Source: an uncultured Alphaproteobacteria bacterium
Lineage (GTDB): Bacteria; Pseudomonadota; Alphaproteobacteria; RF32; CAG-239
Direction: 5' to 3'
Length of the DNA stretch: 64,000 bases
Assembly: GCA_944393225.1 (NCBI GenBank)
Contig: CALXZK010000006.1
Span: forward strand, 10,004 to 74,003
In this document: piece after piece, positions 25,304-39,125 of the stretch
Layout of the letters: each line of letters opens with the position of its first letter
Position numbering within the stretch: the first letter of the stretch is position 1
Notes under the pieces: generated by a model
Databases searched by the model: none
The model's input: only the letters and a program-made list of their open reading frames with translations
What the model was told of the DNA's origin: nothing
Made by a program: the position numbers and the translations under genes

Positions 25304-25909
25304 ATGAATGAAAAACATCTTAAATGTGCATTAATTGATTATCTTATGGAAAATTATCCAACGGCTCTTTTAATTGGCGTTGAAATTCCTTTTATCTCAA
25401 TGAGAAGACGAGTAGATGTTTTGATGATTACTGAAGAAAAACAATTAATTGCTTTTGAAATAAAGAGTGATCAAGACAATCTAACTCGTCTTAATGGGCA
25501 AATATCAGATTATAAAAAAACTTTTGATAAATTATATATTGTAACATCTAACAAATATAAAAATATTTGCAAAATGATACCTAATGGCATAGGTTGCCTT
25601 TATTGTAATGATCAAACTATAAAAATTCTTAGAGAATCCAAAACAATAAAACGCCTATCTAAAAAAAACTTATCATTTTTCATTCAGCAAAGTGATTTCC
25701 AGATGATGGGGTATAAAAATTTATCTATAATTGATGCAAGAAAAAAAATTATTAATTCCACTACTACTGATTTATTACGCAATTTTGCTATAAACAGTAT
25801 TTTAAAAAGATATTCAAAAAGATTTACACTTTTTAAGAAATATAAAGAAACAAAAACGTCTATCTCTGATCTTGATTATCTAACAAAGTCATTTGAACTT
25901 CATCTTTAA
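25304..25909 (+). CDS. sce7726/MmcB-like PD-(D/E)XK nuclease-fold protein
   Basis: E...RRVDVL...IAFEIKSDQDNLTRLNGQISDYKKTFDKLYIV. Confidence 0.75.
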   Translation: MNEKHLKCALIDYLMENYPTALLIGVEIPFISMRRRVDVLMITEEKQLIAFEIKSDQDNLTRLNGQISDYKKTFDKLYIVTSNKYKNICKMIPNGIGCLYCNDQTIKILRESKTIKRLSKKNLSFFIQQSDFQMMGYKNLSIIDARKKIINSTTTDLLRNFAINSILKRYSKRFTLFKKYKETKTSISDLDYLTKSFELHL

Positions 25910-26960
25910 ATTCAACAACATTTCTGCTTATATACGAATTTACTCTACAAGATATCCAATGAGATGGATTACTACCATTGGGATTTCCTTTAGATGCTAT
26001 ATTTATTTCATCATCCGCCCAAACTTGAAATTCTTTAATTGGTATATAGTTTTTGTCTTGAATAGTCATTTGTGCAGCAACTACATACCCTCCATCTTCC
26101 CGACGAAAGCGGTAATAATAAGCAAAACGATCATCAAAAAAATCTATTCTTGGAATCCATTGGCCTCCCGCTGTATCATATCTGATAGGGTGGACTGATG
26201 CATAATCAGATGGATAAATATTTATAAATTGTCCATATCGTTGCTTCAGCGAAATAAAAGTACTTTTTTCTAGACGGAGAAAATGCCCATATTTATCATT
26301 TCCATATTTAGTTACAGAATCAGGAAAACAAGAAAAAGCACACAATACTCCTAAAAATTTTTTATAACCAAAAACGCTAATTAGGTTTTGAAGTGTAGAA
26401 TCAAATACTTCTGAAGCATCTGAAGCAAATCTTCTACAATCAATAAATTTAGCATCGAGTATCAAGATTACATTAGAAAGAGAACAACTTTTTTGAATTT
26501 CTTGCAAATAACTTATGATATCTGGATCATCAATATCAACACGAAATGCTAAGTATTTAGAAATTTTTTGAAGTTCAGTGATTTCTGTTGCTACATCATC
26601 TAAAAAATACGGATTATAATGAATTACAGGAATGACTTTCAAATTTTTGTTCTTAAGCTCTGTTATTAAATTAATCCACTCTGGAAATCCACCTTTAGGA
26701 GAATTCAAAATATTTTTGATTTGATCATTTGTAAGCTGGGAATCTATAGAGAGATCCAAAATAAAAGGAGAATCTTTACACAATTCTTCTATTTTATCTA
26801 ATCTCTTATATATAGAACGATCAACATTTTTTGAACTTTTCCTTGACCTGGTTAATTCAAAAATTGGCAATATTTTTTCTTTTACATAAATATCTAAATG
26901 TTCGTACGCTTTCAATTCTGCATCTGTAGTTTTCAAAATTGGAAAATAAACATATCCCAT
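25860..26960 (-). CDS. Beta family protein (P4 beta / sce7725-like)
   Basis: N-terminal YFPILKTTDAELKAY...ILPIFEL, IPVI, SDYASVHP, PRIDF, YYYR, C-terminal WISCRVNSYI; 366 aa. Confidence 0.7.
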   Translation of the reverse strand: MGYVYFPILKTTDAELKAYEHLDIYVKEKILPIFELTRSRKSSKNVDRSIYKRLDKIEELCKDSPFILDLSIDSQLTNDQIKNILNSPKGGFPEWINLITELKNKNLKVIPVIHYNPYFLDDVATEITELQKISKYLAFRVDIDDPDIISYLQEIQKSCSLSNVILILDAKFIDCRRFASDASEVFDSTLQNLISVFGYKKFLGVLCAFSCFPDSVTKYGNDKYGHFLRLEKSTFISLKQRYGQFINIYPSDYASVHPIRYDTAGGQWIPRIDFFDDRFAYYYRFRREDGGYVVAAQMTIQDKNYIPIKEFQVWADDEINIASKGNPNGSNPSHWISCRVNSYISRNVVEFKDEVQMTLLDNQDQR

Positions 26961-26961
26961 A

Positions 26962-27522
26962 TTAATATCCTTTTAAATATCCTAGCTTATAAGCTCTATA
27001 ACGTACTGCTGCAGGCGAGACATTAAAATAATGAGCGATTTCTTCAATTTGATTTATTCCCTTTTTTATTATGTCGTTAAACTCATCTGCAGGCATCAAT
27101 AATTCTGCTGCAAATGTATTCGCCATTCGTTCAATTTTATCTGTAGAAGTATTCTCTCTAAAAAGAATAAAATCATTATGTTTCCCTCTTTCTTCTATTA
27201 ATTCTCTATCAAACAAGAGATGGCCAAGTTCATGAGCTGCTGTAAAACGCTGTCTGGTTTCATTTTGATATTTATTTATACCTATTGTCCATTCATCTTT
27301 TAATTCAATATAACCGGAAATATCTTCCATATCTTCATATATAATGGAGATATTATGCATTTTTAAATATGTAATAATATCGAATGGTATTGTTTCAACA
27401 CCCAAAGACTGAGCATATTTATAAATATCCTCAACATTTGTATATGAAAATATATCATTTTTGAAAAAATTACTTGTAGTTTTTTCTATCAATTTATATG
27501 GATTATTTCGCATCACAACCAT
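26962..27522 (-). CDS. ImmA/IrrE family zinc metallopeptidase (no N-terminal HTH)
   Basis: RQRFTAAHELGH (HExxH), ERMANTFAAELLMP, IAHYFNVS. Confidence 0.93.
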   Translation of the reverse strand: MVVMRNNPYKLIEKTTSNFFKNDIFSYTNVEDIYKYAQSLGVETIPFDIITYLKMHNISIIYEDMEDISGYIELKDEWTIGINKYQNETRQRFTAAHELGHLLFDRELIEERGKHNDFILFRENTSTDKIERMANTFAAELLMPADEFNDIIKKGINQIEEIAHYFNVSPAAVRYRAYKLGYLKGY

Positions 27523-28212: not shown

Positions 28213-31200
28213 TCACTCCCCGACGACTTTCATAAGATCTTCGTAGGTTTCGACGACTTCATACTTAACGCTATCGGAGCTAATTGCGGCAAAGTGTTTT
28301 CTGGCGCAGGCAATTTTAGATTTTTCAACCCCTCTTAATTCCAGCTCTAAGTTCTCCATATTTCCTTTAGTTTCTGCTACAAAGTAAATATGTTTGACAC
28401 TTCCCTTATTGAAGGCAATAGCCCAATCGGGGTTATATTTTCCGACCGGAGTAGAAATATAAAATCCTCGAGGCAGCTTTGCATAAACAGCAACTTCTTC
28501 AGCATGCTCCAAAGAATTGGCCATATTTTTCTCTGTCTTAGCACTAGAATCCGCAATAACATGGCTATAAATATGTTTATTGGGTGTCGGGACGGTATTT
28601 TCCAAGCTGCCTTTGAGTTTGGGCTCGGTAAAGACATTCATATCATAAGTTTCCGTAATCCGATCATACTTAATCTCTTCTACAATCGCTGTAGCCTTTT
28701 GCTCATTGATGATATTGGCCGCTCGGGTGATAAATTCTTCCGGATTTGCCTCAAACAGCTTAAATCGGCTTTCTTTTATGCCTGACATTATCTGTGCCAG
28801 AGTTTTTCTGGTTAATCCGGTAAGTTGAACCAACTTATCTAACAAGTCATATTTTACGGAAGTATATTTTCCAACTTGAATTGCTTCTCTGCGTTCGGAG
28901 GTAAAGCCAAAGGCTTCTCCTTTTTCGGCTTGTTGTTTATCCAACTCATCCATTTGTCCGGTTCTAATAACAGCAACCGTTTTACTGACATAAAGTTTTT
29001 CATCTAAGGCATAAATTGCCTTTTTTATCAACTCATCACTGTCAAATACCACGCGATAGGTTGATTTAACATTGATTTTATTCCACAAATCTTGAAATTC
29101 TTGCTGATGAAGTTTTTTATCATTAAGCTTAACCTCAACCACCTGATTGCGTGCATTATCAATTTTGACCGGCTTATAAATTGTTTCAATAACCTTGATA
29201 ATTTCGGCACTATCATATCCTTCAATCGGCTTAAATGTACCGGCCTCAACATCATTATGGTATTGTTCGGTTAATTTACCGCGTTTGACATAACCATTAG
29301 CAATCAAGCTCTCATAAATATCCTGAGATTTTTCTTTATCAACCAGTTGTCCATCAATAGTTCTATTTTCAAACAATTCGGCAGAAATGCTCCGCGGCCT
29401 ATCATGCATTGCATCGGCAATATCGGTTTGCAGATTAGAAACAAAATCTTCATAAGATTCACTGGCAATAACCGTTAGTTGGTTAACTTCTTGAACATCA
29501 TCACCCAAAACACTTTCATCCATACGCTCGCCGTTTTGATTGACCGACAAACGTAAACCGCGGCCAATTTCCTGACGACGAGAAGTATTGTTGTAACTTT
29601 GCTTTAACGGGCAAATCTGAAAAACGTTCGGATTATCCCATCCTTCACGCAAGGCTGAATGTGAAAACAGAAAACGCACCGGCTCGGATAAATTCAAAAG
29701 TTGCTCTTTGTTTTTCATAATCAAATCATAAGCATCAACATCATCTGAGCCGACAGCGTTTCTTTTTACTTCGGAATCCTTAAATTTTTTGCTTTTCTTA
29801 TCTATTGAAAAATAACCCTTATGGCATTTTGTGGCATCGGTATTTTCAATAAATTTTCGATAATTCGGATTAAAATCAAGCTCTGCAAGATAGCTTTCTT
29901 TAATATTGTTATATTCTTCTTCAAAGATTTTGGCATAAATACCGTTAGCCTCTCCGGCATCATTAGAAAGCCTATAATTTGCCACTTCATCAATAAAGAA
30001 CAAAGACAAGACTTTAATTCCGCTTTCCAGCAAAACTTGCTCACGTTCAAAATGGCTTTGGATAGTCTCTCTGATTTGAATGCGCCGCAACTGTTCTTCA
30101 GTTGTGCTGCCGACCACATCTCCGGCAAAAAGCTCGGTTCCATTTTGGAAAGTAACCGAGTTGGAGCGACCATCAATATGTGTAATCAACCAACCATGGC
30201 GATATTCATCCAACTGTCCGGATAAATCATAAAGATTATCCCCTTCATCACAATTCCTGATTTTTTTGACAATGCCGGATTTTCCCCGATAATCAAACTC
30301 CAAACGGGCCGTCGGATTTTTGTTTGCCGAAACATTTATTCCGGCCAAATAAGCATAGCCGCCGGTTGCGCTATCTCCGACCACGGAAATTCCCTTAACG
30401 GCAATCTTTTTGACCAATTTTTTATTATAGGCATCTTGGGCATCCAAGCGATAGATGATATTTTTGTTCAACTCTGGCGGCGTAGCCGAATAACTGATAC
30501 GAAACAAAGGATTAAACCTTTTAATTGCTTTTTGAGTAACGGCATCGGCAGTTCTGCCCAAAGACTGAGGCTCATCCAAAATCAAAATCGGATTTGTTTT
30601 GGCAATCACATCAATAGGTTTGCGCCATTTGAAGCTTTCTTGAGGATTGAAAATTATTTTAGACTCTTTGCTTTTTCCATCTTCTTTGAGTGAGGCGGCA
30701 AAAGCCTGCGAATTGATAATCATCACCCTGATTTTGCTATCTGTGGCAAAGGTTTCAATCTCATTCAAGTTCTGAGAATTATATACAAACTCCATAATAG
30801 ACTTATGATATTCTTGCTGAAAATGCTTGCGTGTATTTTCAAAAGACTTTTTTACCCCTTCCCGAATAGCCACACTCGGCACAACAATAATAAACTTCGT
30901 CCAACCATATAAATAGTTAAGCTCATAAATTGTTTTAATGTAAGTATAAGTCTTACCAGTTCCGGTTTCCATTTCTATAGTTAGGTTAATATCATCGCCA
31001 ACTTTTCCGCTAGGCTTTAGCCCCAGCGCAATTTGCTTTTTGTGAATATTGTCCCAAACTTCTCTTTCAGGAATAAGCAACGGACTATTGGCAAAAGCAT
31101 CTTGCTCAAAAGAGGTTTGCGTATTTTTAACATCTTTTCCGGGATCCAAGATATAACGTGTTGGTTTGGATTTTGGCTGTCCGGCAAAGATATCACAAAC

Positions 31201-31263
31201 CGCGTTGCAGGCATCTATCTGAAATTGCTGATGCTTAAATTTGAGTTCTATTTTTGCCGACAT
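28213..31263 (-). CDS. res: Type III restriction-modification system Res subunit
   Basis: METGTGKT, DEPQ, SAT, LREGWDNPNVFQIC, QEIGRGLRL, C-terminal YNPDWA...VAETKG nuclease motif. Confidence 0.95.
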   Translation of the reverse strand: MSAKIELKFKHQQFQIDACNAVCDIFAGQPKSKPTRYILDPGKDVKNTQTSFEQDAFANSPLLIPEREVWDNIHKKQIALGLKPSGKVGDDINLTIEMETGTGKTYTYIKTIYELNYLYGWTKFIIVVPSVAIREGVKKSFENTRKHFQQEYHKSIMEFVYNSQNLNEIETFATDSKIRVMIINSQAFAASLKEDGKSKESKIIFNPQESFKWRKPIDVIAKTNPILILDEPQSLGRTADAVTQKAIKRFNPLFRISYSATPPELNKNIIYRLDAQDAYNKKLVKKIAVKGISVVGDSATGGYAYLAGINVSANKNPTARLEFDYRGKSGIVKKIRNCDEGDNLYDLSGQLDEYRHGWLITHIDGRSNSVTFQNGTELFAGDVVGSTTEEQLRRIQIRETIQSHFEREQVLLESGIKVLSLFFIDEVANYRLSNDAGEANGIYAKIFEEEYNNIKESYLAELDFNPNYRKFIENTDATKCHKGYFSIDKKSKKFKDSEVKRNAVGSDDVDAYDLIMKNKEQLLNLSEPVRFLFSHSALREGWDNPNVFQICPLKQSYNNTSRRQEIGRGLRLSVNQNGERMDESVLGDDVQEVNQLTVIASESYEDFVSNLQTDIADAMHDRPRSISAELFENRTIDGQLVDKEKSQDIYESLIANGYVKRGKLTEQYHNDVEAGTFKPIEGYDSAEIIKVIETIYKPVKIDNARNQVVEVKLNDKKLHQQEFQDLWNKINVKSTYRVVFDSDELIKKAIYALDEKLYVSKTVAVIRTGQMDELDKQQAEKGEAFGFTSERREAIQVGKYTSVKYDLLDKLVQLTGLTRKTLAQIMSGIKESRFKLFEANPEEFITRAANIINEQKATAIVEEIKYDRITETYDMNVFTEPKLKGSLENTVPTPNKHIYSHVIADSSAKTEKNMANSLEHAEEVAVYAKLPRGFYISTPVGKYNPDWAIAFNKGSVKHIYFVAETKGNMENLELELRGVEKSKIACARKHFAAISSDSVKYEVVETYEDLMKVVGE

Positions 31264-31551
31264 TACACAAATTCCTCATATAAATCATTAAAATTAGGAT
31301 TTTCTTTTATAATTAAATTAATTTTCCAATCTCTGTGCCAATTTTTTAATTGCTTTTCGCGAGCGATTGCATCAGTTAAAAGATCATATTGCTCTACATA
31401 AACCAGCTTATGTACACTATATTTTTTTGTAAAACCATCTATCAAATTATTTTTATGCTCAAACACACGTCGAATAATATCATTAGTTACACCTATATAG
31501 AATGTGGAATTAGTTTTATTTGTCATAATATAAACATATCCTTTTTTTCAT
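31263..31551 (-). pseudogene. Stand-alone GIY-YIG nuclease, frameshifted just after the start codon
   Basis: GYVYIMTNK...FYIGVTNDIIRRVFEHK...FTKKYSVHKLVY...AIAREKQLKNW. ATG at 31551 (AAGG SD) is followed by A7; A6 would be in frame. Confidence 0.75.
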
Positions 31552-31646
31552 TTAACCTTCCACAACTCAACATACAACAATATGCTTCAAAAAGCAGGAT
31601 TCACCATATAAGACAGCGGTACAGCCATTATCTCGAACGGCATAAC

Positions 31647-31710
31647 CGTCATCCCGAACTTGTTTCGGGATCTCTTTTCCACCGGATGCTGAAACAAGTT
31701 CAGCATGACG
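31647..31710. repeat. CGTC-tagged REP-like inverted doublet
   Basis: CGTCAT-CCCGAA-CTTGT-TTCGGG-ATC ... GAT-GCTGAA-ACAAG-TTCAGC-ATGACG. Confidence 0.85.
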
Positions 31711-31724
31711 AAGCGACAACAACA

Positions 31725-33677
31725 TTACATTACCCTTACATTATCTTTGGCTTGTTTATCATCCCAATGGCAGATGGTTTTGAAAATTTCAAACATATTG
31801 ATTTTTTCATCATCTTTTTCAAAACAAGAATCTCTAAATACCACACGTGTTGGGTTGAGTTCTGCCATTTTGGTGATGGTTGCGGTGCTAACATTTCTAT
31901 CAAAACAAGCAACCAAATCATTGTCACCGACAATATGAATGGTATTCTCGCCCACTTTAACCTCTTGCAGCGGCAAAGAGAGAGAAACACCCCATTCCAC
32001 CATAACCCCAAACAACAAATCGAGCGGAGTGCGATCGGCTTTGATATTATCAATACTGCTTAACAAATCGGCTTGTTTGAGCTCGCTTGGTTTGTAATAT
32101 ACATCTTGCATATTAGAATCATCAACCTTCAAAACCCTAAAACCGATATCCAAATCTGTTTTTCCGGTTTCCTGCACGATTTTATCACCGGCACGGCGAA
32201 TACGTTCTTTACCAATTTCACAAATATTTTTGTAACCAGCTTTATAGGCTTCTGATTTTTCATCAGTTTCTTCCGGTAGTTGCACCATAATAAACTTGCG
32301 ATTACCACCATCTTCAGCATTCAGTTGCATAACAGCATGAGCAGTTGTTGCCGAGCCGGAGAAGAAATCAAGGATTATAGAATCTCTATTAAAATGCGTA
32401 GCAGAGTTTACTAATTCTTTAATATAATTTACAGGTTTAGAATAATTAAATAGATTCTTTATAGAGAAAAGTCTTTCAAGTTCTTCATATGCATCTTCAT
32501 TAGTCCCTTTTATAGAAATTCCATTAATAAAGCTACTAAATCCTTTGAAATTATCTTCGTCGTATATACGAAAAACACGAATTTGAAAATTTAATGTGTT
32601 GATTATAAATTTTGCGCCTTGAGAAAGTTGTTCATTCAGCATTTGTTGAGACCATACAAATGGAGCTTTCATTTTTAATTCATCTACTATTTTTCCATCT
32701 TTGACTCTAATATCATTTAATAACTCCACTGGATTAATTTCATCACCATATACGCCAGCCTTATACATTCCATCACTTAATTTCGTATAAATTGTATTGC
32801 TTGGTATGCTCAATATTGATGATTTATTAGTTCTTTTAATTATAGGTTGTGATTCTGATGAATCTGCTGTTCCACCATATAATCCTACAGTTTTCCCTCT
32901 ACACTTAGTATACACCAAAACATATTCCGTAAGACTTATAATTCCCTTGGAAAGAAAGCTACCTTTTCTTTTTTTGGTCCAAGTTATAATTCCATAACCA
33001 TTATCTTCGCCAAAAACCTCATCACAAATCTTTTTGAGGTTGGCAACTTCGTTGTCATCAATAGAAATAAAAATCACGCCATCATCGGTTAACAAATCAC
33101 GAGCCAGTTTCAAACGCGGATACATCATAGAACACCAGTCCGAATGGAAACGTCCGCTTGATTCCGTATTGCGGACAAAAGACTTGCTCAACAAGCGGTT
33201 GTCCTCTTCATCAAACAAATCTATCCCTTGGTTCATTTCTTCTTTAGACTGCACCCGATTATCATGATAAACAAAATCATTTCCGGTATTATACGGCGGA
33301 TCAATATATATCATCTTGATTTTGCCCAAATAACCTTCTTCCAAAATTTTGAGCACTTCCAAGTTATCACCCTCAATATAAAGGTTTTCGGTTGCATCCC
33401 AATTTTTACTTTCCTCTTTGCAGGGGCGCAAAGTTTTGCGAATAGGCTTGTTAGCCTCCACCATAGCCGCATTTTTGCCTACCCACTTAAACTCATAGGT
33501 CTCGCGTGCATTTTCATCCACCACATCGGCTAGTTCGGCCTTTAAACGCTCAAAATCTACCTTGCCGTTTTGGACTGCCGCCGGACAAAGCTCTGCCACT
33601 TTGGCCAAAACCTTATCATAAGGCTTTGCCTCCATTCCAAGCTTTTCAATTTTTATGTCTGTTGTTTCCTTACTCAT
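31725..33677 (-). CDS. mod: Type III restriction-modification system Mod subunit (N6-adenine methyltransferase)
   Basis: NLYIEGDNLEVLK, IYIDPPYNTG, LDFFSGSATTAHA; AAGGAG SD before ATG 33677. Confidence 0.95.
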   Translation of the reverse strand: MSKETTDIKIEKLGMEAKPYDKVLAKVAELCPAAVQNGKVDFERLKAELADVVDENARETYEFKWVGKNAAMVEANKPIRKTLRPCKEESKNWDATENLYIEGDNLEVLKILEEGYLGKIKMIYIDPPYNTGNDFVYHDNRVQSKEEMNQGIDLFDEEDNRLLSKSFVRNTESSGRFHSDWCSMMYPRLKLARDLLTDDGVIFISIDDNEVANLKKICDEVFGEDNGYGIITWTKKRKGSFLSKGIISLTEYVLVYTKCRGKTVGLYGGTADSSESQPIIKRTNKSSILSIPSNTIYTKLSDGMYKAGVYGDEINPVELLNDIRVKDGKIVDELKMKAPFVWSQQMLNEQLSQGAKFIINTLNFQIRVFRIYDEDNFKGFSSFINGISIKGTNEDAYEELERLFSIKNLFNYSKPVNYIKELVNSATHFNRDSIILDFFSGSATTAHAVMQLNAEDGGNRKFIMVQLPEETDEKSEAYKAGYKNICEIGKERIRRAGDKIVQETGKTDLDIGFRVLKVDDSNMQDVYYKPSELKQADLLSSIDNIKADRTPLDLLFGVMVEWGVSLSLPLQEVKVGENTIHIVGDNDLVACFDRNVSTATITKMAELNPTRVVFRDSCFEKDDEKINMFEIFKTICHWDDKQAKDNVRVM

Positions 33678-35244
33678 CGCGGCTCCTTTTAACGGTTTGA
33701 TATTTTTGATTTGGGTGATTTGGTATATCAGGGTGAGTTTGTTCAAGAACACCTAGATTAATTAGCGGATATAAAATATTTTGCAAGAAATAAGACTTAT
33801 TACTATATTTCATAATTGCCATTATTTCTGTTGTTTTTAAAGGTCTCTCGCAAAGTTCCAGCACCTTACGACCTTCATCGCCAATTAAGTCCAGTATCTT
33901 ATCCATAGGCAACTGTTGAATACTGCTGGCAACTGTGTCCCTAACTGTATCAGTAGGTGTGTCACTAACTGTGTCACTAGCTGTATCACTTGTCGGGCTA
34001 ACTGATTGATTTTGAGTCGCCGACTGAGCCATTCTATCTGACTCGGCTACTTGATCACTGGCGGTATTAAACAAGTTTATGGGCCAATCAAGTTTAAAGA
34101 CCTCTCCATCAGTTAAAGTTGGAACATAGCCGGCATAAATCCTTGCATATTTTGCAATTTTACGAATTCCTGAACCTAACTCCTCAGCCAGTCCGATCTC
34201 TTTAAAAAACTTTGCAATATTAGGATTTTTAGTATATGGGGTACTTGTATCTGGGTTTATATTTCCGCAGATATAGGGTTTGTTGCCATTTTCAGTATAT
34301 ATTCTGTCATGCTCAATCACCAATTTTGCCGGATAATGGTTGGTAAACTCCCGGTGCATCAATAAATTTACACTAATTTCTCGAAACAGTATGTTTCTTA
34401 GATCTCTGCGAATTCCATCCGATGTATCCATATAAAATGGTGATGGCAAATGTTTATTTACAAAAGCCATTATCCGCTCATAGCTTTCTATCAAATTTGT
34501 TCGCACATCATCTCTATCATCATATCTTTCAGAATCTTTAACTCTTAATATGAGATCTGTCTTATAATGCGGCAAAATAGACTGAATTACCTCGTCTTTT
34601 CCCAAAATCAAAGCGCATGCCAGTGTATATCCTTCTTTCTGCGAATTAAAATCTTTCTTATGCAGACCGGCACTGCGTAATAATTGTTCGTTATTTAGGT
34701 CTTTCCAGGGGTGATCCGGTTGTCTATTAACAGCCATTGTCCGACAACGTTCTATTAAATCAACACGCAAATCATCCATTGTAATCCCAGGAAAAATTTC
34801 ATTTTCAGAATAAGTTTTTTCCTTATTAACATATAATTGAGCTATCTGAGAATGATTATGCGTTATATCGCGGTCACCATCATCTGTGCGGATATAAACT
34901 TTACCTCCCGCATAATGGACTTCTGAACTAGCGGGAACCAAAATATACAAAATAACCTTATCATCAATTTCAACCTCTTTACACTCTAAATACAAAGGAG
35001 GATGAACCTTAGAAATATTACTGATTGTATTGGCAAAATCACGTTCTATTTGAGGCAATAAGTCACGGTTAATGCCTAAAATATTTCCATTATCAGCAAC
35101 ACCCAATAAAATTTCGCCGCCTTGCGTATTAGAAAAGGCACAAATTGTTTCATAAATATTTTTAGGCAAGCCGCCTTGAGCTTCCTTGAATTCAACTTTT
35201 AAACCCTCACCTTGGGCTATTAATGCTCTTATTTTTTCTATCAT
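33670..35244 (-). CDS. Schlafen/AlbA_2 domain + HATPase_c_4 + winged-helix protein
   Basis: EGLKVEFKEA...ETICAFSNTQGG.ILLGVADNG, NLLMHR, NPNIAKFF...EELGSG, C-terminal PNHPNQKY. Confidence 0.88.
   Translation of the reverse strand: MIEKIRALIAQGEGLKVEFKEAQGGLPKNIYETICAFSNTQGGEILLGVADNGNILGINRDLLPQIERDFANTISNISKVHPPLYLECKEVEIDDKVILYILVPASSEVHYAGGKVYIRTDDGDRDITHNHSQIAQLYVNKEKTYSENEIFPGITMDDLRVDLIERCRTMAVNRQPDHPWKDLNNEQLLRSAGLHKKDFNSQKEGYTLACALILGKDEVIQSILPHYKTDLILRVKDSERYDDRDDVRTNLIESYERIMAFVNKHLPSPFYMDTSDGIRRDLRNILFREISVNLLMHREFTNHYPAKLVIEHDRIYTENGNKPYICGNINPDTSTPYTKNPNIAKFFKEIGLAEELGSGIRKIAKYARIYAGYVPTLTDGEVFKLDWPINLFNTASDQVAESDRMAQSATQNQSVSPTSDTASDTVSDTPTDTVRDTVASSIQQLPMDKILDLIGDEGRKVLELCERPLKTTEIMAIMKYSNKSYFLQNILYPLINLGVLEQTHPDIPNHPNQKYQTVKRSRDE
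33931..33990. repeat. Degenerate 12-bp tandem repeat encoding an (S/T/R)DT(V/A/P) linker
   Basis: Encodes SDTA-SDTV-SDTP-TDTV-RDTV inside the AlbA_2 protein. Confidence 0.65.
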
Positions 35245-35867
35245 AACTCTTCCTTTAGGGACTTTATCATAGACTTAATTTCTAACTTTTTCTTTAACTG
35301 CGGCTCATTATTCATCTTATTTTCAAGTTGCTCTATCTTTTTTGCGATTTTTTCTTGCTCTATACTTCTTGAAACCTTTTCTTTGAGCCCCTTTTCTGCA
35401 TTGTCTTCAATTTTGCCACCGCTTATTTGCTTAATCAGACTTTCATAGATGGCATCAATGCTTCCTCCTTCTATATCAAGAGAAATCTCTTTTTGCCAAT
35501 TACTTGTCCATCTCTTAACAATGCTGATATTGTCTTTGTTTTTATCTTTATAAGCAATACTAAGGCAATATTTTCCATCAAATTCCAAAACAAACAAAAC
35601 ATATGCTGCGCGAATGCTTTTATCCATTAAATCTAAAAGTTGTGTATTGCATACTCGTCTTTTTAATACAACTCTTAAAACCATTATTTCTGGAAAGATA
35701 CTTCCTTCCTTAACATTTAAGCTTCGTGCCGAGAACTGATTTGTAGCCATAATTTTGGCAACATCATTAGTCATTGCCGTTTTTAAAGAGGTCGAAAATT
35801 CGCCGTATTTATAAAATTTTTCTTTGGCAATAAATTTATTGGGAAGCTCCGTCGACTTTGGAAACAT
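35241..35867 (-). CDS. DUF4391 domain protein
   Basis: MFPKSTE...FIAKEKFY, EIMVL, DAIYESLIKQI, C-terminal IEQLENKMNNEPQLKKKLEI; typical position between SNF2 and mod. Confidence 0.8.
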   Translation of the reverse strand: MFPKSTELPNKFIAKEKFYKYGEFSTSLKTAMTNDVAKIMATNQFSARSLNVKEGSIFPEIMVLRVVLKRRVCNTQLLDLMDKSIRAAYVLFVLEFDGKYCLSIAYKDKNKDNISIVKRWTSNWQKEISLDIEGGSIDAIYESLIKQISGGKIEDNAEKGLKEKVSRSIEQEKIAKKIEQLENKMNNEPQLKKKLEIKSMIKSLKEEL

Positions 35868-38800
35868 TTATTTTTTACTCCCATAAACTTCTTCGTCAGA
35901 CTTCAGTACAACAAAACAAATCAACTCAAAATCATCCAAACCCTTGATTTCACCTTGTCCAAAAGTGCTACTGCCATCTGAAAATAAACTATCGACCTCG
36001 GATTCGTCTTTAACTTGAATAATTGATTGAATAGCTTTTCCCAACAAATCGGAATATTTGCTCATGTCCATTCCGTCTTTGGTTTGTTTATTAAACAAAG
36101 CACAACGACTTTTATCCGGCGTTGAAAAGCCCTTGCACACCAAGCGCATATAACTCAACAATTTGTGAGGCTCCAAATGATTATACTGCACAGTCCCGTC
36201 ATCTTTCATATAAACCATGTAAAACGGGTGTAACCTGTTTGGATTATCAATATCTCTGACATTGTTAACATTTCTCAAGATATAAATAACCCCCGGAGGC
36301 AGACCATCTCCGGCAGCCATGGCAACGGCATGCATGCCCAGCGGAGCTTTTTCAACATCATCATGGTGTTTTTTATATTCAACCAAATCCAAACGAAATT
36401 CATTTAACCCCAAATCCATGATATTGACACCACCAGAAATATCTTCGGGATCAACAACCTCTTTTTGTAATTTTTCCAGCTGTTTTCTGCGGTACTCCAG
36501 ATCTCCTTTTTCGGTTATATCAATCGGATTATCCTCACCAGTTGAGGTCATAACCGTAATTTTCATACGAGTTTCAACACGATTTTTAAGGTTAATATAT
36601 TCGTCTAACTTAATGTTTGGCCAAAAGTTAACCAATTGAATTTTATCATTTTGACTGCCAATTCGATCGATTCGGCCAAATCTTTGAATAATTCTAACCG
36701 GATTCCAGTGAATATCAAAATTAATCAGATAATCGCAGTCTTGAAGGTTTTGTCCCTCTGAAATACAGTCTGTGCCAATTAGAATATCAATATCCCCATC
36801 GGGAATTTTATTTAACTTATTACGATCCTTTGAAATGGGTGAAAAACAGGCCAAAACAGTATTAAAATCAGCGGGCATCTTATCAATGGTTGTTTTTCCA
36901 TCTGTTGAGCCGGTAACCATAGCCGTATTTAGCCCAAGTTCATTTTTAATAATCTTGCTAAGATTGTCGTACAAATATTCTGCCGTGTCTGCAAATGCTG
37001 TAAAAATCAAGACTTTTTTATTGCCATCATTTATCGGATGTTTAATTTTGTTGCGAACGACCTCCAATAATGTCTGGAGTTTTTTGTCTTTTTCCGGAGT
37101 TATGGTCGATACCTCTAATAACAAATGCTCCAAAATCTCCTTATCGGTATTTAAATCAACTCTCCATGCTCGATAATCCATATCCTTAAAATCAAGCTGA
37201 TATTTACCACCTGCAGAAATCAAATCAGATAATTCACCATCAAAATCCAATTCTATTTCATCGGAATAGGTACTACATGTCTTGTTTTTTTCATAATTAT
37301 CAATTGCCGAAATAGCTTTTTGAATTTGCTCAAGAATTTTTGAGGTTGTAATTCTAAAAGAATAAACCGAACTTTCTAAACGCTTAAGCAAATTAACAGC
37401 CATCAACTGTTTCAAACCAAATTCTCGTCCGGCCAAAGAAATACCCATTTTACCGCGTTTGCCATATTTGCTTTCATATTTAGCTAAACGACTGGGAAAC
37501 AAATAAGATGATGGACTATAAACAGATAAGTTTAGGCTTTCCAAAGATTTAAAAATCTCTTCATAGCTTATATTTGTATTATCTGCCAATGATGGAGACT
37601 TGTTAATGGGCGGCAATCTGGTCGGAAACTTACCAATTTCGGTCATATCATAATATTTTTCGATATGTTTGCGGCTTCTGGCGATGGTTACGGAATCCAA
37701 AACTTCAAAAAAGTCAAAGTCAAGTTCGCTTAATAGCCGCTCAGTTGTTCGTTCTTCTGTGGGTAATTTGCTCCATAGATTAAAGGCTCTTTGCGCATTG
37801 TTAAAAATCGTTGATAGGGGTTTTTGAGTCTTCAATTTTTTATTTAATTCATCTTCAACACCTTCGTATGCCAGTTGCAACTGATTTTTTAGATCAACAA
37901 ACCGATTATTGACCGGAGTAGCAGAAAGCATAAGAACTTTTGTTTTTACACCCGATTTAATAACATTTTTCATCAATGTTGCATAGCGGTTAAAATGCTC
38001 AAGCCCGTCTTCATCCGTTGTTACCAATGAGCCGTTGCGGAAATTATGGCTTTCATCAATAACTACGAGATCATAGTTACCCCAATTAATAAGAGATAAA
38101 TTTACCCCATTTGTATAGCCACTTTCACGAGATAAATCCGTATGAAACAATACATCATAACGAAGTCTGTCATTAATAAGGGGATTATTCTGATAATTTC
38201 CCTTATAATTCATCCAGTTATCAGAAAGTTTTTTAGGACAAAGGACCAAAACATTTTTATTTCTATTTTCATAATATTTGATAACCGATAATGCCGTAAA
38301 AGTTTTACCCAAACCAACACTATCGGCCAAAATACAGCCATTAAACTTTTCTAGCTTATGAATAATTGCCAGTGCTGCATCTTTTTGAAAAGAATATAAC
38401 ATATTCCAAACTTGGCTATTTTTAAAACCTGTTGCTTCGTTAGGGATGTTATCCTCTATATCTTCCAAAAACTCGCTAAATATATGATATAGCGTTATCA
38501 TATAAATAAATTCCGGAGAATTCTCTTCATAAACAAGCTCTATATGCTCCAAAACCTGCTCGGTTACATCTTTCATATGCTCTTTGTCATTCCAAACTTC
38601 CTCAAAACCTTTAATATATTGCTTGGTGTATGGAGCAGGTATTTTCATAGTCATTTTAAATATATCATTTCCACGTTCACTTCCTAAATCAACCGTAGTG
38701 AAACCATCAAGAGGCATATATGTATAATCTTCATTAATATTTAAAAAGCCGACAATTCCGCGCGTTGCTGATATATTTGATTTAAATTTAACTTTATTTC

Positions 38801-39125
38801 TTATCCATTCGGCACATTCTTTAGAAATTGCTTTTTGTGTCATCTGATTTCTCAGGCGAACCTCAAACTCAGTACCATATAAACTCTTCTCTCTGTTTAA
38901 TCTTGGGATATAAAACTCTCGCTTTTCCTTTTCTATCTTATCACCTAAAAAAGCCGGACTGGTAAAAATAAAACGCAACTCATCAATTTTATTGAGCTGT
39001 TTCTTTAAGCTTTCATAAGCATAGATGGAAAAACAAGATGCCGCTATGGATAATTTACTTCCTGATTTGATTTCCTCTTTCAGATCATCAACTAATCTTG
39101 TTGTCCTATTATCAAACTGTTGCAT
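35868..39125 (-). CDS. SNF2-family (SF2) helicase associated with Type III RM
   Basis: ILADSVGLGKT, VIDESHNFRN, MLSATPVNN, TDCISEGQNLQD, WNPVRIIQRFGRIDRIG. Confidence 0.92.
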   Translation of the reverse strand: MQQFDNRTTRLVDDLKEEIKSGSKLSIAASCFSIYAYESLKKQLNKIDELRFIFTSPAFLGDKIEKEKREFYIPRLNREKSLYGTEFEVRLRNQMTQKAISKECAEWIRNKVKFKSNISATRGIVGFLNINEDYTYMPLDGFTTVDLGSERGNDIFKMTMKIPAPYTKQYIKGFEEVWNDKEHMKDVTEQVLEHIELVYEENSPEFIYMITLYHIFSEFLEDIEDNIPNEATGFKNSQVWNMLYSFQKDAALAIIHKLEKFNGCILADSVGLGKTFTALSVIKYYENRNKNVLVLCPKKLSDNWMNYKGNYQNNPLINDRLRYDVLFHTDLSRESGYTNGVNLSLINWGNYDLVVIDESHNFRNGSLVTTDEDGLEHFNRYATLMKNVIKSGVKTKVLMLSATPVNNRFVDLKNQLQLAYEGVEDELNKKLKTQKPLSTIFNNAQRAFNLWSKLPTEERTTERLLSELDFDFFEVLDSVTIARSRKHIEKYYDMTEIGKFPTRLPPINKSPSLADNTNISYEEIFKSLESLNLSVYSPSSYLFPSRLAKYESKYGKRGKMGISLAGREFGLKQLMAVNLLKRLESSVYSFRITTSKILEQIQKAISAIDNYEKNKTCSTYSDEIELDFDGELSDLISAGGKYQLDFKDMDYRAWRVDLNTDKEILEHLLLEVSTITPEKDKKLQTLLEVVRNKIKHPINDGNKKVLIFTAFADTAEYLYDNLSKIIKNELGLNTAMVTGSTDGKTTIDKMPADFNTVLACFSPISKDRNKLNKIPDGDIDILIGTDCISEGQNLQDCDYLINFDIHWNPVRIIQRFGRIDRIGSQNDKIQLVNFWPNIKLDEYINLKNRVETRMKITVMTSTGEDNPIDITEKGDLEYRRKQLEKLQKEVVDPEDISGGVNIMDLGLNEFRLDLVEYKKHHDDVEKAPLGMHAVAMAAGDGLPPGVIYILRNVNNVRDIDNPNRLHPFYMVYMKDDGTVQYNHLEPHKLLSYMRLVCKGFSTPDKSRCALFNKQTKDGMDMSKYSDLLGKAIQSIIQVKDESEVDSLFSDGSSTFGQGEIKGLDDFELICFVVLKSDEEVYGSKK

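Follow-up and report, generated by a model that had tools for sequence, protein, structure and literature searches.

A probable Ssn nuclease cassette with its hairpin repeats at the stop/start junction of a type III mod-res operon

Introduction

The Ssn family consists of single-domain GIY-YIG proteins of about 94 amino acids, which are assigned to CDD cd10448 (Chenal et al., Nat Commun 2025, PMC11893778). As described in the text of that paper, the target of Ssn is an oriented hairpin repeat, named NTS (CGTCATTCCCGCGMAVGCGGGAATCYRG) or, in general, SRM, which is bound only when single-stranded, and the cut falls a few nucleotides 5' of the repeat. The ssn genes are typically flanked by SRM repeats, mutation of Y6, Y17 and E64 abolishes cutting by SsnA, and SsnA limits transformation by NTS-bearing DNA in Neisseria. 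The same text compares Ssn/SRM with repetitive extragenic palindromic (REP) sequences and with IS200/IS605, notes a layout like that of an insertion sequence (IS), and hypothesises mobility of the hairpin-gene-hairpin unit, where the question of whether the unit moves is left open. In this study, a stretch of 64,000 nucleotides from an uncultured alphaproteobacterium (contig CALXZK010000006.1, positions 10,004 to 74,003; hereafter, the window) was analysed, in which a small GIY-YIG gene and a hairpin doublet lie between mod and res, the methyltransferase and restriction genes of a type III operon.

On its sequence, the insert is very probably an Ssn/SRM (NTS) system. The 454 bp between two copies of an 8-bp direct repeat are very likely an Ssn cassette, composed of a 95-residue GIY-YIG nuclease and its cognate SRM/NTS-type doublet, inserted at the TAATG of the mod-res junction. 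The initial annotation had proposed a mobile unit that pairs a GIY-YIG nuclease with a REP-like repeat; the insertion proved real, whereas the pairing is not new, as it had already been published in PMC11893778. The text of that paper covers Ssn in vitro and in Neisseria transformation, and the present locus adds natural evidence on the mobility of the unit. Judged from its DNA, the locus is a clear new example of the pair of Ssn nuclease and hairpin, and it adds evidence that such units move.

The text of PMC11893778 has no mention of a target site, restriction-modification or a methyltransferase, and its supplementary data 5 names genomes without hairpin sequences; further supplements may list the hairpin subtype or the restriction contexts described here. 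As far as that text goes, the clean comparison of filled and empty sites, the unequal junction duplications (8 vs 26 bp) and the position of the closest Ssn genes, all before type III res, go beyond it. A literature search found no paper joining GIY-YIG with "repetitive extragenic palindromic", and searches for REPIN, RAYT, and palindromic repeat plus Bacteroidetes gave unrelated papers only. No follow-up on Ssn was present among the 2025-2026 matches listed.

Results and Discussion

Insertion at the mod/res junction

All coordinates refer to the 64-kb window, and all the genes of the region are on the minus strand. Fetched loci are denoted by L, genomes by G (G000 is the genome of the window) and public metagenome runs by X. 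The features of the locus are as follows.

31725..33752, minus strand: mod, open reading frame (ORF) of a type III DNA methyltransferase (Pfam N6_N4_Mtase, E 9.5e-31; PADLOC MTase_III, E 3e-202)
31722..31729, minus strand: left copy of the 8-bp direct repeat TGTAATGT, in which the mod stop TAA is followed by an ATG that is no longer used (TAATG)
31711..31721, minus strand: 11 nt, TGTTGTCGCTT, from the left repeat copy to the first hairpin head; other letters in L091 and L002
31685..31710, minus strand: hairpin unit B, CGTCATGCTGAACTTGTTTCAGCATC, SRM-like, with the CGTCAT head on the coding strand; the same unit type flanks ssn genes in relatives
31647..31672, plus strand: hairpin unit A, CGTCATCCCGAACTTGTTTCGGGATC, with the head on the opposite strand; inverted doublet with unit B, 12 nt apart
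31552..31646, minus strand: spacer of about 95 nt from the doublet to the ssn gene, partly alignable to L002
31263..31551, minus strand: ssn, gene of the predicted Ssn-type GIY-YIG nuclease, frameshifted in the window (Pfam GIY-YIG, E 4.8e-13; E 2.5e-16 over the open frame)
31542..31548, minus strand: run of seven A (A7), the cause of the ssn frameshift; A6 elsewhere
31260..31267, minus strand: right copy of TGTAATGT, in which the ssn stop TAA overlaps the res ATG
28213..31263, minus strand: res, type III restriction endonuclease/helicase (Pfam ResIII and RE_endonuc; PADLOC REase_III, E 2.6e-276)

The repeat ACATTACA is exact at 31260-31267 and 31722-31729, with a spacing of 462, and reads TGTAATGT on the coding strand (31729-31722 and 31267-31260). 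The mod stop TAA occupies 31725-31727 and is directly followed by ATG, which gives TAATG; at the other end, the stop of the GIY-YIG frame (31263-31265) overlaps the res ATG (31261-31263). The 454 bp between the copies contain, in order, the 11 nt, the two inverted 26-nt hairpins, the spacer of about 95 nt and the GIY-YIG gene. The initial annotation had described the repeat and its positions, the mod stop in one copy and the GIY-YIG stop over the res ATG in the other, and a content of a hairpin doublet and a small GIY-YIG gene, and all of these were borne out by the coordinates. The longest mod ORF begins at GTG 33752, and the real start possibly lies further in. The match of res to NCBIfam PRK15483 (E 7.8e-108, 361.7 bits) is under the 564-bit cut-off of the model.

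The 8-nt repeat alone is within chance: the same 801 nt contain two further exact repeats of 8-9 nt. When the 390-nt flanks of ssn in 53 relatives' loci (51 metagenomic loci, L002 and L047) were compared, the longest direct match was mostly 8-10 nt, as in the controls, so that an 8-bp repeat would not stand out, and no flanking duplication above the control was found in these loci besides L002 itself and hairpin-derived matches. The repeat in the window is considered meaningful because it coincides with insertion borders that are defined independently.

These borders are given by related operons. Eighty loci encoding mod relatives were fetched, and 67 of them include both the mod end and the res start. 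The same insert is present in L011, the res of which is 98.6% identical to that of the window. L013 (res 85% identical) is empty; it reads ...GTAATGTAATGTCG..., with a single 8-bp copy and the mod stop over the res ATG. L031 (res 85% identical) is also empty at its own homologous stop/start overlap, where mod and res are directly coupled. Empty-site homologues with direct mod-res coupling, as envisaged in the initial annotation, are thus available in L013 and L031. More generally, the distance between mod and res is at most 100 nt in 27 of the 67 homologous operons, across many phyla.

Contigs of four public runs (X1, X3, X9 and X10) from four studies were aligned to 31000-32000. A 57-nt contig of X10 joins 31259 to 31722; it skips 462 letters, 8 letters fit either side, and there are zero other differences. 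The filled form also occurs in X10, on a 560-nt contig, and the X10 depth of 10.9 at 31726 is the sum of 6.3 (filled) and 4.6 (empty). DNA like that of L013 would not match the X10 joint letter for letter. The joint is modest evidence because its shorter side has only 22 letters and it comes from a single run. X9 and the filled X10 contig have TGTGATGT as their left copy (T>C at 31726), and therefore the filled allele has had time to diverge. Since related operons are empty at the junction and X10 contains a contig with the precise empty allele, the 462 bp are a genuine insertion at the stop/start overlap of mod and res, to the extent that a comparison can establish it.

After the insertion, mod retains its stop, and res retains an ATG overlapped by the stop of the preceding gene, which is now ssn. 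The 3' end of ssn contains a Shine-Dalgarno-like stretch, GAGGA, 9 nt ahead of the res ATG, and similar stretches are present in L091 and L002. The left TAATG now starts a 52-codon ORF running across the hairpins, which looks like a by-product. The 11-nt stretch at 31711..31721 has no conservation in relatives. An Rfam scan of 31000-32000 gave no match above chance, the RNA fold of the spacer reached a z of −2.3 only, and a promoter/terminator scan found sites no more numerous than in shuffles, with one terminator-like match that is unit A itself on the antisense strand.

The ssn gene and the hairpin repeat

A match to Pfam PF01541 covers model positions 1-78 over the open frame of ssn, which contains this single domain. 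The residues Y7, Y18 and E65 are invariant in 21 aligned relatives and correspond to Y6, Y17 and E64 of SsnA. The link to SsnA is indirect; it runs through relatives with 59-66% identical proteins (L097, L125, L137, L151 and L169), in which the flanking hairpins fit the NTS consensus almost letter for letter. The ssn gene at this locus is the only one in G000. Of 301 genomes sampled from the class, 94 have a relative at E <= 1e-10, a tally that includes G065 and G264, which are flagged unpublished and are used in no other claim. An identity as a GIY-YIG homing endonuclease was rejected on the length of 95 amino acids, the single domain and the match to TIGR01453, the NCBIfam model of group I intron endonucleases, which reached 26.2 bits against a cut-off of 56.05.

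Each hairpin unit has a CGTCAT head, a stem of 8-9 bp, a CTTGT loop and a C after the palindrome, and the stem/loop subtype is CCCGAA/CTTGT. The association of this palindrome with GIY-YIG genes across genomes, as put forward in the initial annotation, holds in a wider set of loci. Among 80 metagenomic loci with relatives of the Ssn protein, 58 have at least 300 nt on both sides, and at least one hairpin lies within 300 nt in 57 of these 58, where the background (>600 nt away) is 0.24 per kb. Hairpins are upstream with the head outward in 46 loci, downstream and inverted in 50, and on both sides in 39. These rows are not all independent because L091 is the same as L092, and L145 and L150 are apparently one sequence filed twice, as judged from identical table rows rather than a letter-for-letter comparison. 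Hairpins also flank ssn on both sides in L002, L003 and L004.

The hairpin changes with the enzyme. The ssn of G011 is only 60% identical and is accompanied by hairpins whose stem differs; in L047, with an ssn about 50% identical, yet another stem follows the same CGTCAT head. Matches to the doublet in 41 related genomes number 36 in G015, 35 in G010, 27 in G020, 22 in G030 and 20 each in G003 and G027. In these six hairpin-rich genomes, ssn was seen in G010, G020 and G030. In X1, the read depth over the unit A stretch is 151, and unit A is therefore a repeat in that community.

Several observations weigh against the assignment to an Ssn cassette. First, ssn is broken in the window assembly by one extra A. 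The A7 run puts the ATG at 31549-31551 out of frame, and the ATG-started ORF at 31263-31526 encodes 87 amino acids that do not include the first catalytic tyrosine (Y7). L011 has A6 and an intact protein of 95 amino acids (P0001), and one base fewer at 31542 is found in contigs of X3, X9 and X10; X1, at a depth of 3.6, agrees with the A7 of the window. The A7 could be a strain difference or a homopolymer error. The GIY-YIG gene named in the initial annotation is thus present, with the correction that the window copy is frameshifted, while L011 and the contigs of three other studies have the intact form. Second, the assignment to the family of SsnA and CDD cd10448 is an indirect one, made via the domain, the catalytic residues and the hairpins. 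Third, the degenerate SRM search pattern, as transcribed from the text of PMC11893778, matches neither unit of the window, as position 5 of the stem is A; the same transcribed pattern does match an NTS-like unit. Fourth, 11 nt separate the left border from the CGTC head, which exceeds the "few nucleotides" that this text reports for SsnA, and the window has no hairpin 3' of ssn, unlike the usual hairpin-gene-hairpin layout.

The hairpin content of the host genome points in the same direction. G000, a metagenome-assembled genome (MAG) of 1.7 Mb in 54 contigs with 38% G+C, has few units: two at the locus, one at C7:70150-70175 and one decayed at C5. No enrichment of hairpins over shuffles was found in G000 by either search, and the counts are not usable in themselves (258 vs 225-278 in shuffles for a loose detector, and 4 vs 1-4 for the published pattern as transcribed). 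Only the three exact-type units are meaningful. In addition, no ssn was detected in G003, G015 and G027, even with a protein query, at a completeness of about 100% for G003 and G015 and about 81% for G027. Because G003 and G015 are hairpin-rich without a detected ssn, the gene and the repeat load are not tightly coupled within a genome; ssn is possibly unassembled in hairpin-rich genomes, because repeats often end contigs.

Further observations concern the repeat. G000 has a lone decayed hairpin at C5:12096-12134, where two genomes of the same genus (L003 and L004) have an ssn cassette and hairpin arrays of as many as seven units, which suggests that G000 lost a second cassette or that the hairpin site is an old one. 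The sites C5 and C3 of G000, which carry ssn in G009/G010 and G011, were tried as empty sites and rejected owing to a decayed hairpin and a poorly conserved spacer, with no clean borders. Beside unit A, 31620-31643 is a hotspot of strain differences: substitutions are numerous, X9 has 21 nt inserted, and X10 has a duplication of 39 nt. Elsewhere, the 1 kb is almost invariant between studies. A Bacteroidetes origin of the hairpin was rejected, as the best mod relatives are labelled proteobacterial or alphaproteobacterial MAGs.

Recurrence ahead of res

The three closest ssn lineages, those of the window, L091 and L002, all directly precede a type III res with a stop/start overlap. The ssn of L091 (= L092) is 82% identical to that of the window, and its stop overlaps the res ATG (ATGA). 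The ssn of L002 is 79% identical, and its frame ends with ATGA over the res ATG. The insert of L002 is flanked by an exact 26-bp direct repeat, composed of the last base of the upstream stop, the overlapping res ATG and the next 22 nt of res. A fourth case of mod-ssn-res, with a distant ssn, is L047. The distance from the left border to the CGTC head is 5 nt in L002 and 0 nt in L047, where the border is not fixed; with the 11 nt of the window, these values are close to the cutting distance given for SsnA without coinciding with it. A further empty site was sought for L047 among the 80 mod loci and given up, because there is no close relative and the borders cannot be fixed.

As a side observation, the downstream hairpin does not interrupt the ssn frame of L002 (1494-2007; G020), which extends by about 80 codons and terminates precisely on the res ATG, and the ssn frame of L047 likewise reads through its hairpin.

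The three ssn genes are about equidistant (76-82% identity). The res genes of L091 and L002 are 70% identical to each other and only 40-43% identical to the res of the window. Since the ssn identity of 79-82% far exceeds the res identity of 40-43%, and since L013 and L031 are empty, ssn is considered to have entered the window operon from outside. An ancestral mod-ssn-res arrangement, in which the 8-bp repeats would have mediated a later deletion of ssn from L013 and L031, would account for the four operon lineages that have mod and res separated by ssn (the window with L011, L091, L002 and L047), and a deletion between direct repeats would be precise. This arrangement is very improbable, given the disparity between the ssn and res identities, the adjacency of mod and res in 27 of the 67 operons, and the ssn of L047, which is only about 50% identical and has different hairpins.

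Outside these operons, the neighbours of ssn are ordinary genes of many kinds. In the neighbour scan (125 of 129 ORFs, with the duplicates L092 and L150 dropped), a position between mod and res was found in 0 of 74 other loci, and only L121 has an N6_N4 methylase neighbour. The ssn cassettes occur in many unrelated intergenic junctions, e.g., beside folA/thyA-like genes and between Cas4 and Cas1. The latter case is L107, a metagenome contig.

Origin of the insert

By analogy with the SsnA proteins that have been characterised, the predicted enzyme would bind its hairpin only in single-stranded DNA and in one orientation, and would cut a few nucleotides 5' of the CGTC head. The host is an uncultured bacterium with a small genome, and the cassette very probably entered its type III mod-res operon precisely at the TAATG overlap, after the operon had split from its closest empty relatives. 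We infer that a copy-in may have started at an Ssn-made break beside the hairpins and ended with a template switch or a microhomology joint. Copy-in is favoured over a classical transposase reaction because the duplication length differs between the events. For the classical reaction, the unequal lengths, the lack of a general flank signal, the missing right-hand hairpin and an enzyme for which only single-strand cutting is known are all unfavourable.

These points also bear on an autonomous mini-transposon, in which the nuclease would make staggered cuts at the target and TGTAATGT would be a true target-site duplication. The filled site has two copies of the 8 bp and the empty site one, an equivalent junction in L002 has an exact duplication of 26 bp, ssn cassettes lie in many unrelated intergenic junctions, and the text of PMC11893778 notes an IS-like layout. 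However, the duplication lengths differ (8 vs 26 bp), the 53 loci contain no flanking repeats above the control besides L002 and hairpin-derived matches, and the published enzyme, as described in that text, cuts single-stranded DNA only and has no known joining activity. Moreover, the right end of the window cassette is without a hairpin, and the supposed duplication contains the ssn stop, which falls at the same codon as that of L091. A mini-transposon of this kind is therefore doubtful.

The position of the ssn stop is also relevant to a joint of two stop/start overlaps, in which there is no true duplication: the cassette would derive from another operon where the stop of ssn was already overlapped with the ATG of the following gene, its 3' end (…TTTGTGTAATG…) would have paired with the recipient TAATG by microhomology, and the right copy would be cassette DNA. 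Because the right copy contains the ssn stop, and the L091 stop falls at the same codon, this copy may be the cassette's own end. The ssn of L091 and L002 also ends in a stop/ATG overlap before res, ssn has 95 codons in both the window and L091 so that the stop stands where a native stop would, and TAATG, which makes up 5 of the 8 bases, is expected at both junctions for functional reasons. On the other hand, no relative was found that ends in TGTAATGT, with L091 having GCATGA, and 22 nt of the L002 repeat (26 bp) are res coding sequence, which is unexplained unless the donor operon was near-identical. Such a joint is a substantial possibility, with somewhat less than an even chance.

With the copy-in at an Ssn-made break as the favoured route for the window, a broader proposal can be made only tentatively, and its general form is rather doubtful: Ssn cassettes may be a mobile class of their own, in which breaks beside hairpins start copy-in at operon stop/start junctions, and variable duplications (8 and 26 bp) keep the downstream gene coupled. 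One clade (79-82% identity) would have specialised before type III res, where it may add restriction of single-stranded DNA.

The mod-res slot and the neighbourhood

More than 100 nt of extra DNA lies between mod and res in 40 of the 67 homologous operons. The ORFs in these gaps were scanned in 30 of 39 cases, where L011 and eight ORFs matching a scanned one in length were left out. The 30 ORFs include 6 RhuM, 6 YhcG/DUF1016 nucleases (two with the N-terminal domain only), 2 Schlafen AlbA_2, 1 Shedu SduA_C and 1 DUF3800. The remainder are 1 23S-rRNA-IVP, 1 second methylase, 2 DUF2971 (one below the cut-off), 1 weak HEPN, the GIY-YIG of L047 and 8 without a family.

Since ssn lies in a slot that commonly takes up accessory genes, a defence role stays possible. 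In its strongest form, ssn would be a recruited accessory defence gene, kept for restricting incoming single-stranded DNA that bears the hairpin, with mobility being secondary. The filled slot in 40 of 67 operons, with many scanned fillers of defence type, is consistent with such a role, as are the near absence of hairpin copies from G000 and the overlap with res in all three closest ssn lineages. The limit that SsnA sets on transformation by NTS-bearing DNA in Neisseria, as given in the text of PMC11893778, is a further point in its favour. However, none of the PADLOC models matches ssn, the 74 other scanned loci include none between mod and res and only L121 with an N6_N4 methylase neighbour, and ssn is frameshifted in the window strain and absent from the co-occurring allele with no sign of consequence. 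Retention primarily for defence is thus unlikely.

The neighbourhood of the operon also contains genes of interest. A gene with Schlafen-AlbA_2 lies just upstream of mod at 33670-35244. Upstream of it, 35241-39125 contains a DUF4391 gene and a gene for an SNF2-type helicase of 1085 amino acids, for which the best PADLOC match is "HKD+Snf2" (E 3e-117), followed by weaker matches to DrmD and BrxH; the type III system is therefore placed within a larger defence cluster. Downstream of res, 25860-27522 encodes an M78/IrrE-type peptidase (PADLOC capP, E 6e-33) and a "Beta protein" (PF14350; PADLOC beta, E 4e-46, PD-Lambda-2_C), which may be a further small defence or regulator pair.

Comparison with known systems

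The locus is among the cleanest natural before/after comparisons available, as the same operon is seen with and without the cassette to the base, and both forms occur in one metagenome. The borders of the cassette can be compared directly with the Ssn cut site. The recurrent lodging of one Ssn clade ahead of type III restriction genes can be tested by ordinary defence assays.

The closest system is Ssn/NTS. The window shares with it a single-domain GIY-YIG protein of about 95 amino acids with the same catalytic Tyr, Tyr and Glu, an oriented hairpin with a CGTCAT head and a C after the palindrome, and, in the relatives, hairpins that flank the gene together with gene-less copies scattered in related genomes. 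In contrast, the CCCGAA/CTTGT subtype of the window, a common hairpin subtype, is missed by the search pattern given in the text of PMC11893778, and it has only 3 copies in the host genome. The window hairpins are upstream only, as an inverted doublet, and an empty site and a junction repeat mark the cassette as an insertion, unlike the units described in that text.

REP/REPIN-RAYT systems also have short oriented hairpins, often as inverted doublets, that flank one small enzyme gene, and their repeat sequence co-varies with the enzyme lineage. The identity of the insert as such a system was rejected because the window enzyme is GIY-YIG and not HUH/Y1, and the head is CGTC and not GTAG. To our knowledge, Ssn has no strand-transfer chemistry, unlike the RAYT transposases. 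The "peel and paste" elements of IS200/IS605 have subterminal hairpins that are recognised single-stranded, with cleavage beside and not within the hairpin, which resembles the case of Ssn. However, those elements insert without target duplication next to a fixed short target, whereas junction repeats of 8 bp (window) and 26 bp (L002) are seen here, and no motif is common to the left flanks.

GIY-YIG homing endonucleases of the I-TevI type share the GIY-YIG domain and a precise site between conserved host sequences, and diverged operons have related copies at equivalent sites. They differ in that the window Ssn is without a DNA-binding domain and has no intron or intein context. Finally, accessory genes embedded in restriction-modification operons are familiar from type I loci. 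The filled mod-res slot in 40 of the 67 homologous operons resembles this arrangement, whereas ssn brings its own repeat, its insertion can be dated, and it is found mostly outside restriction loci.

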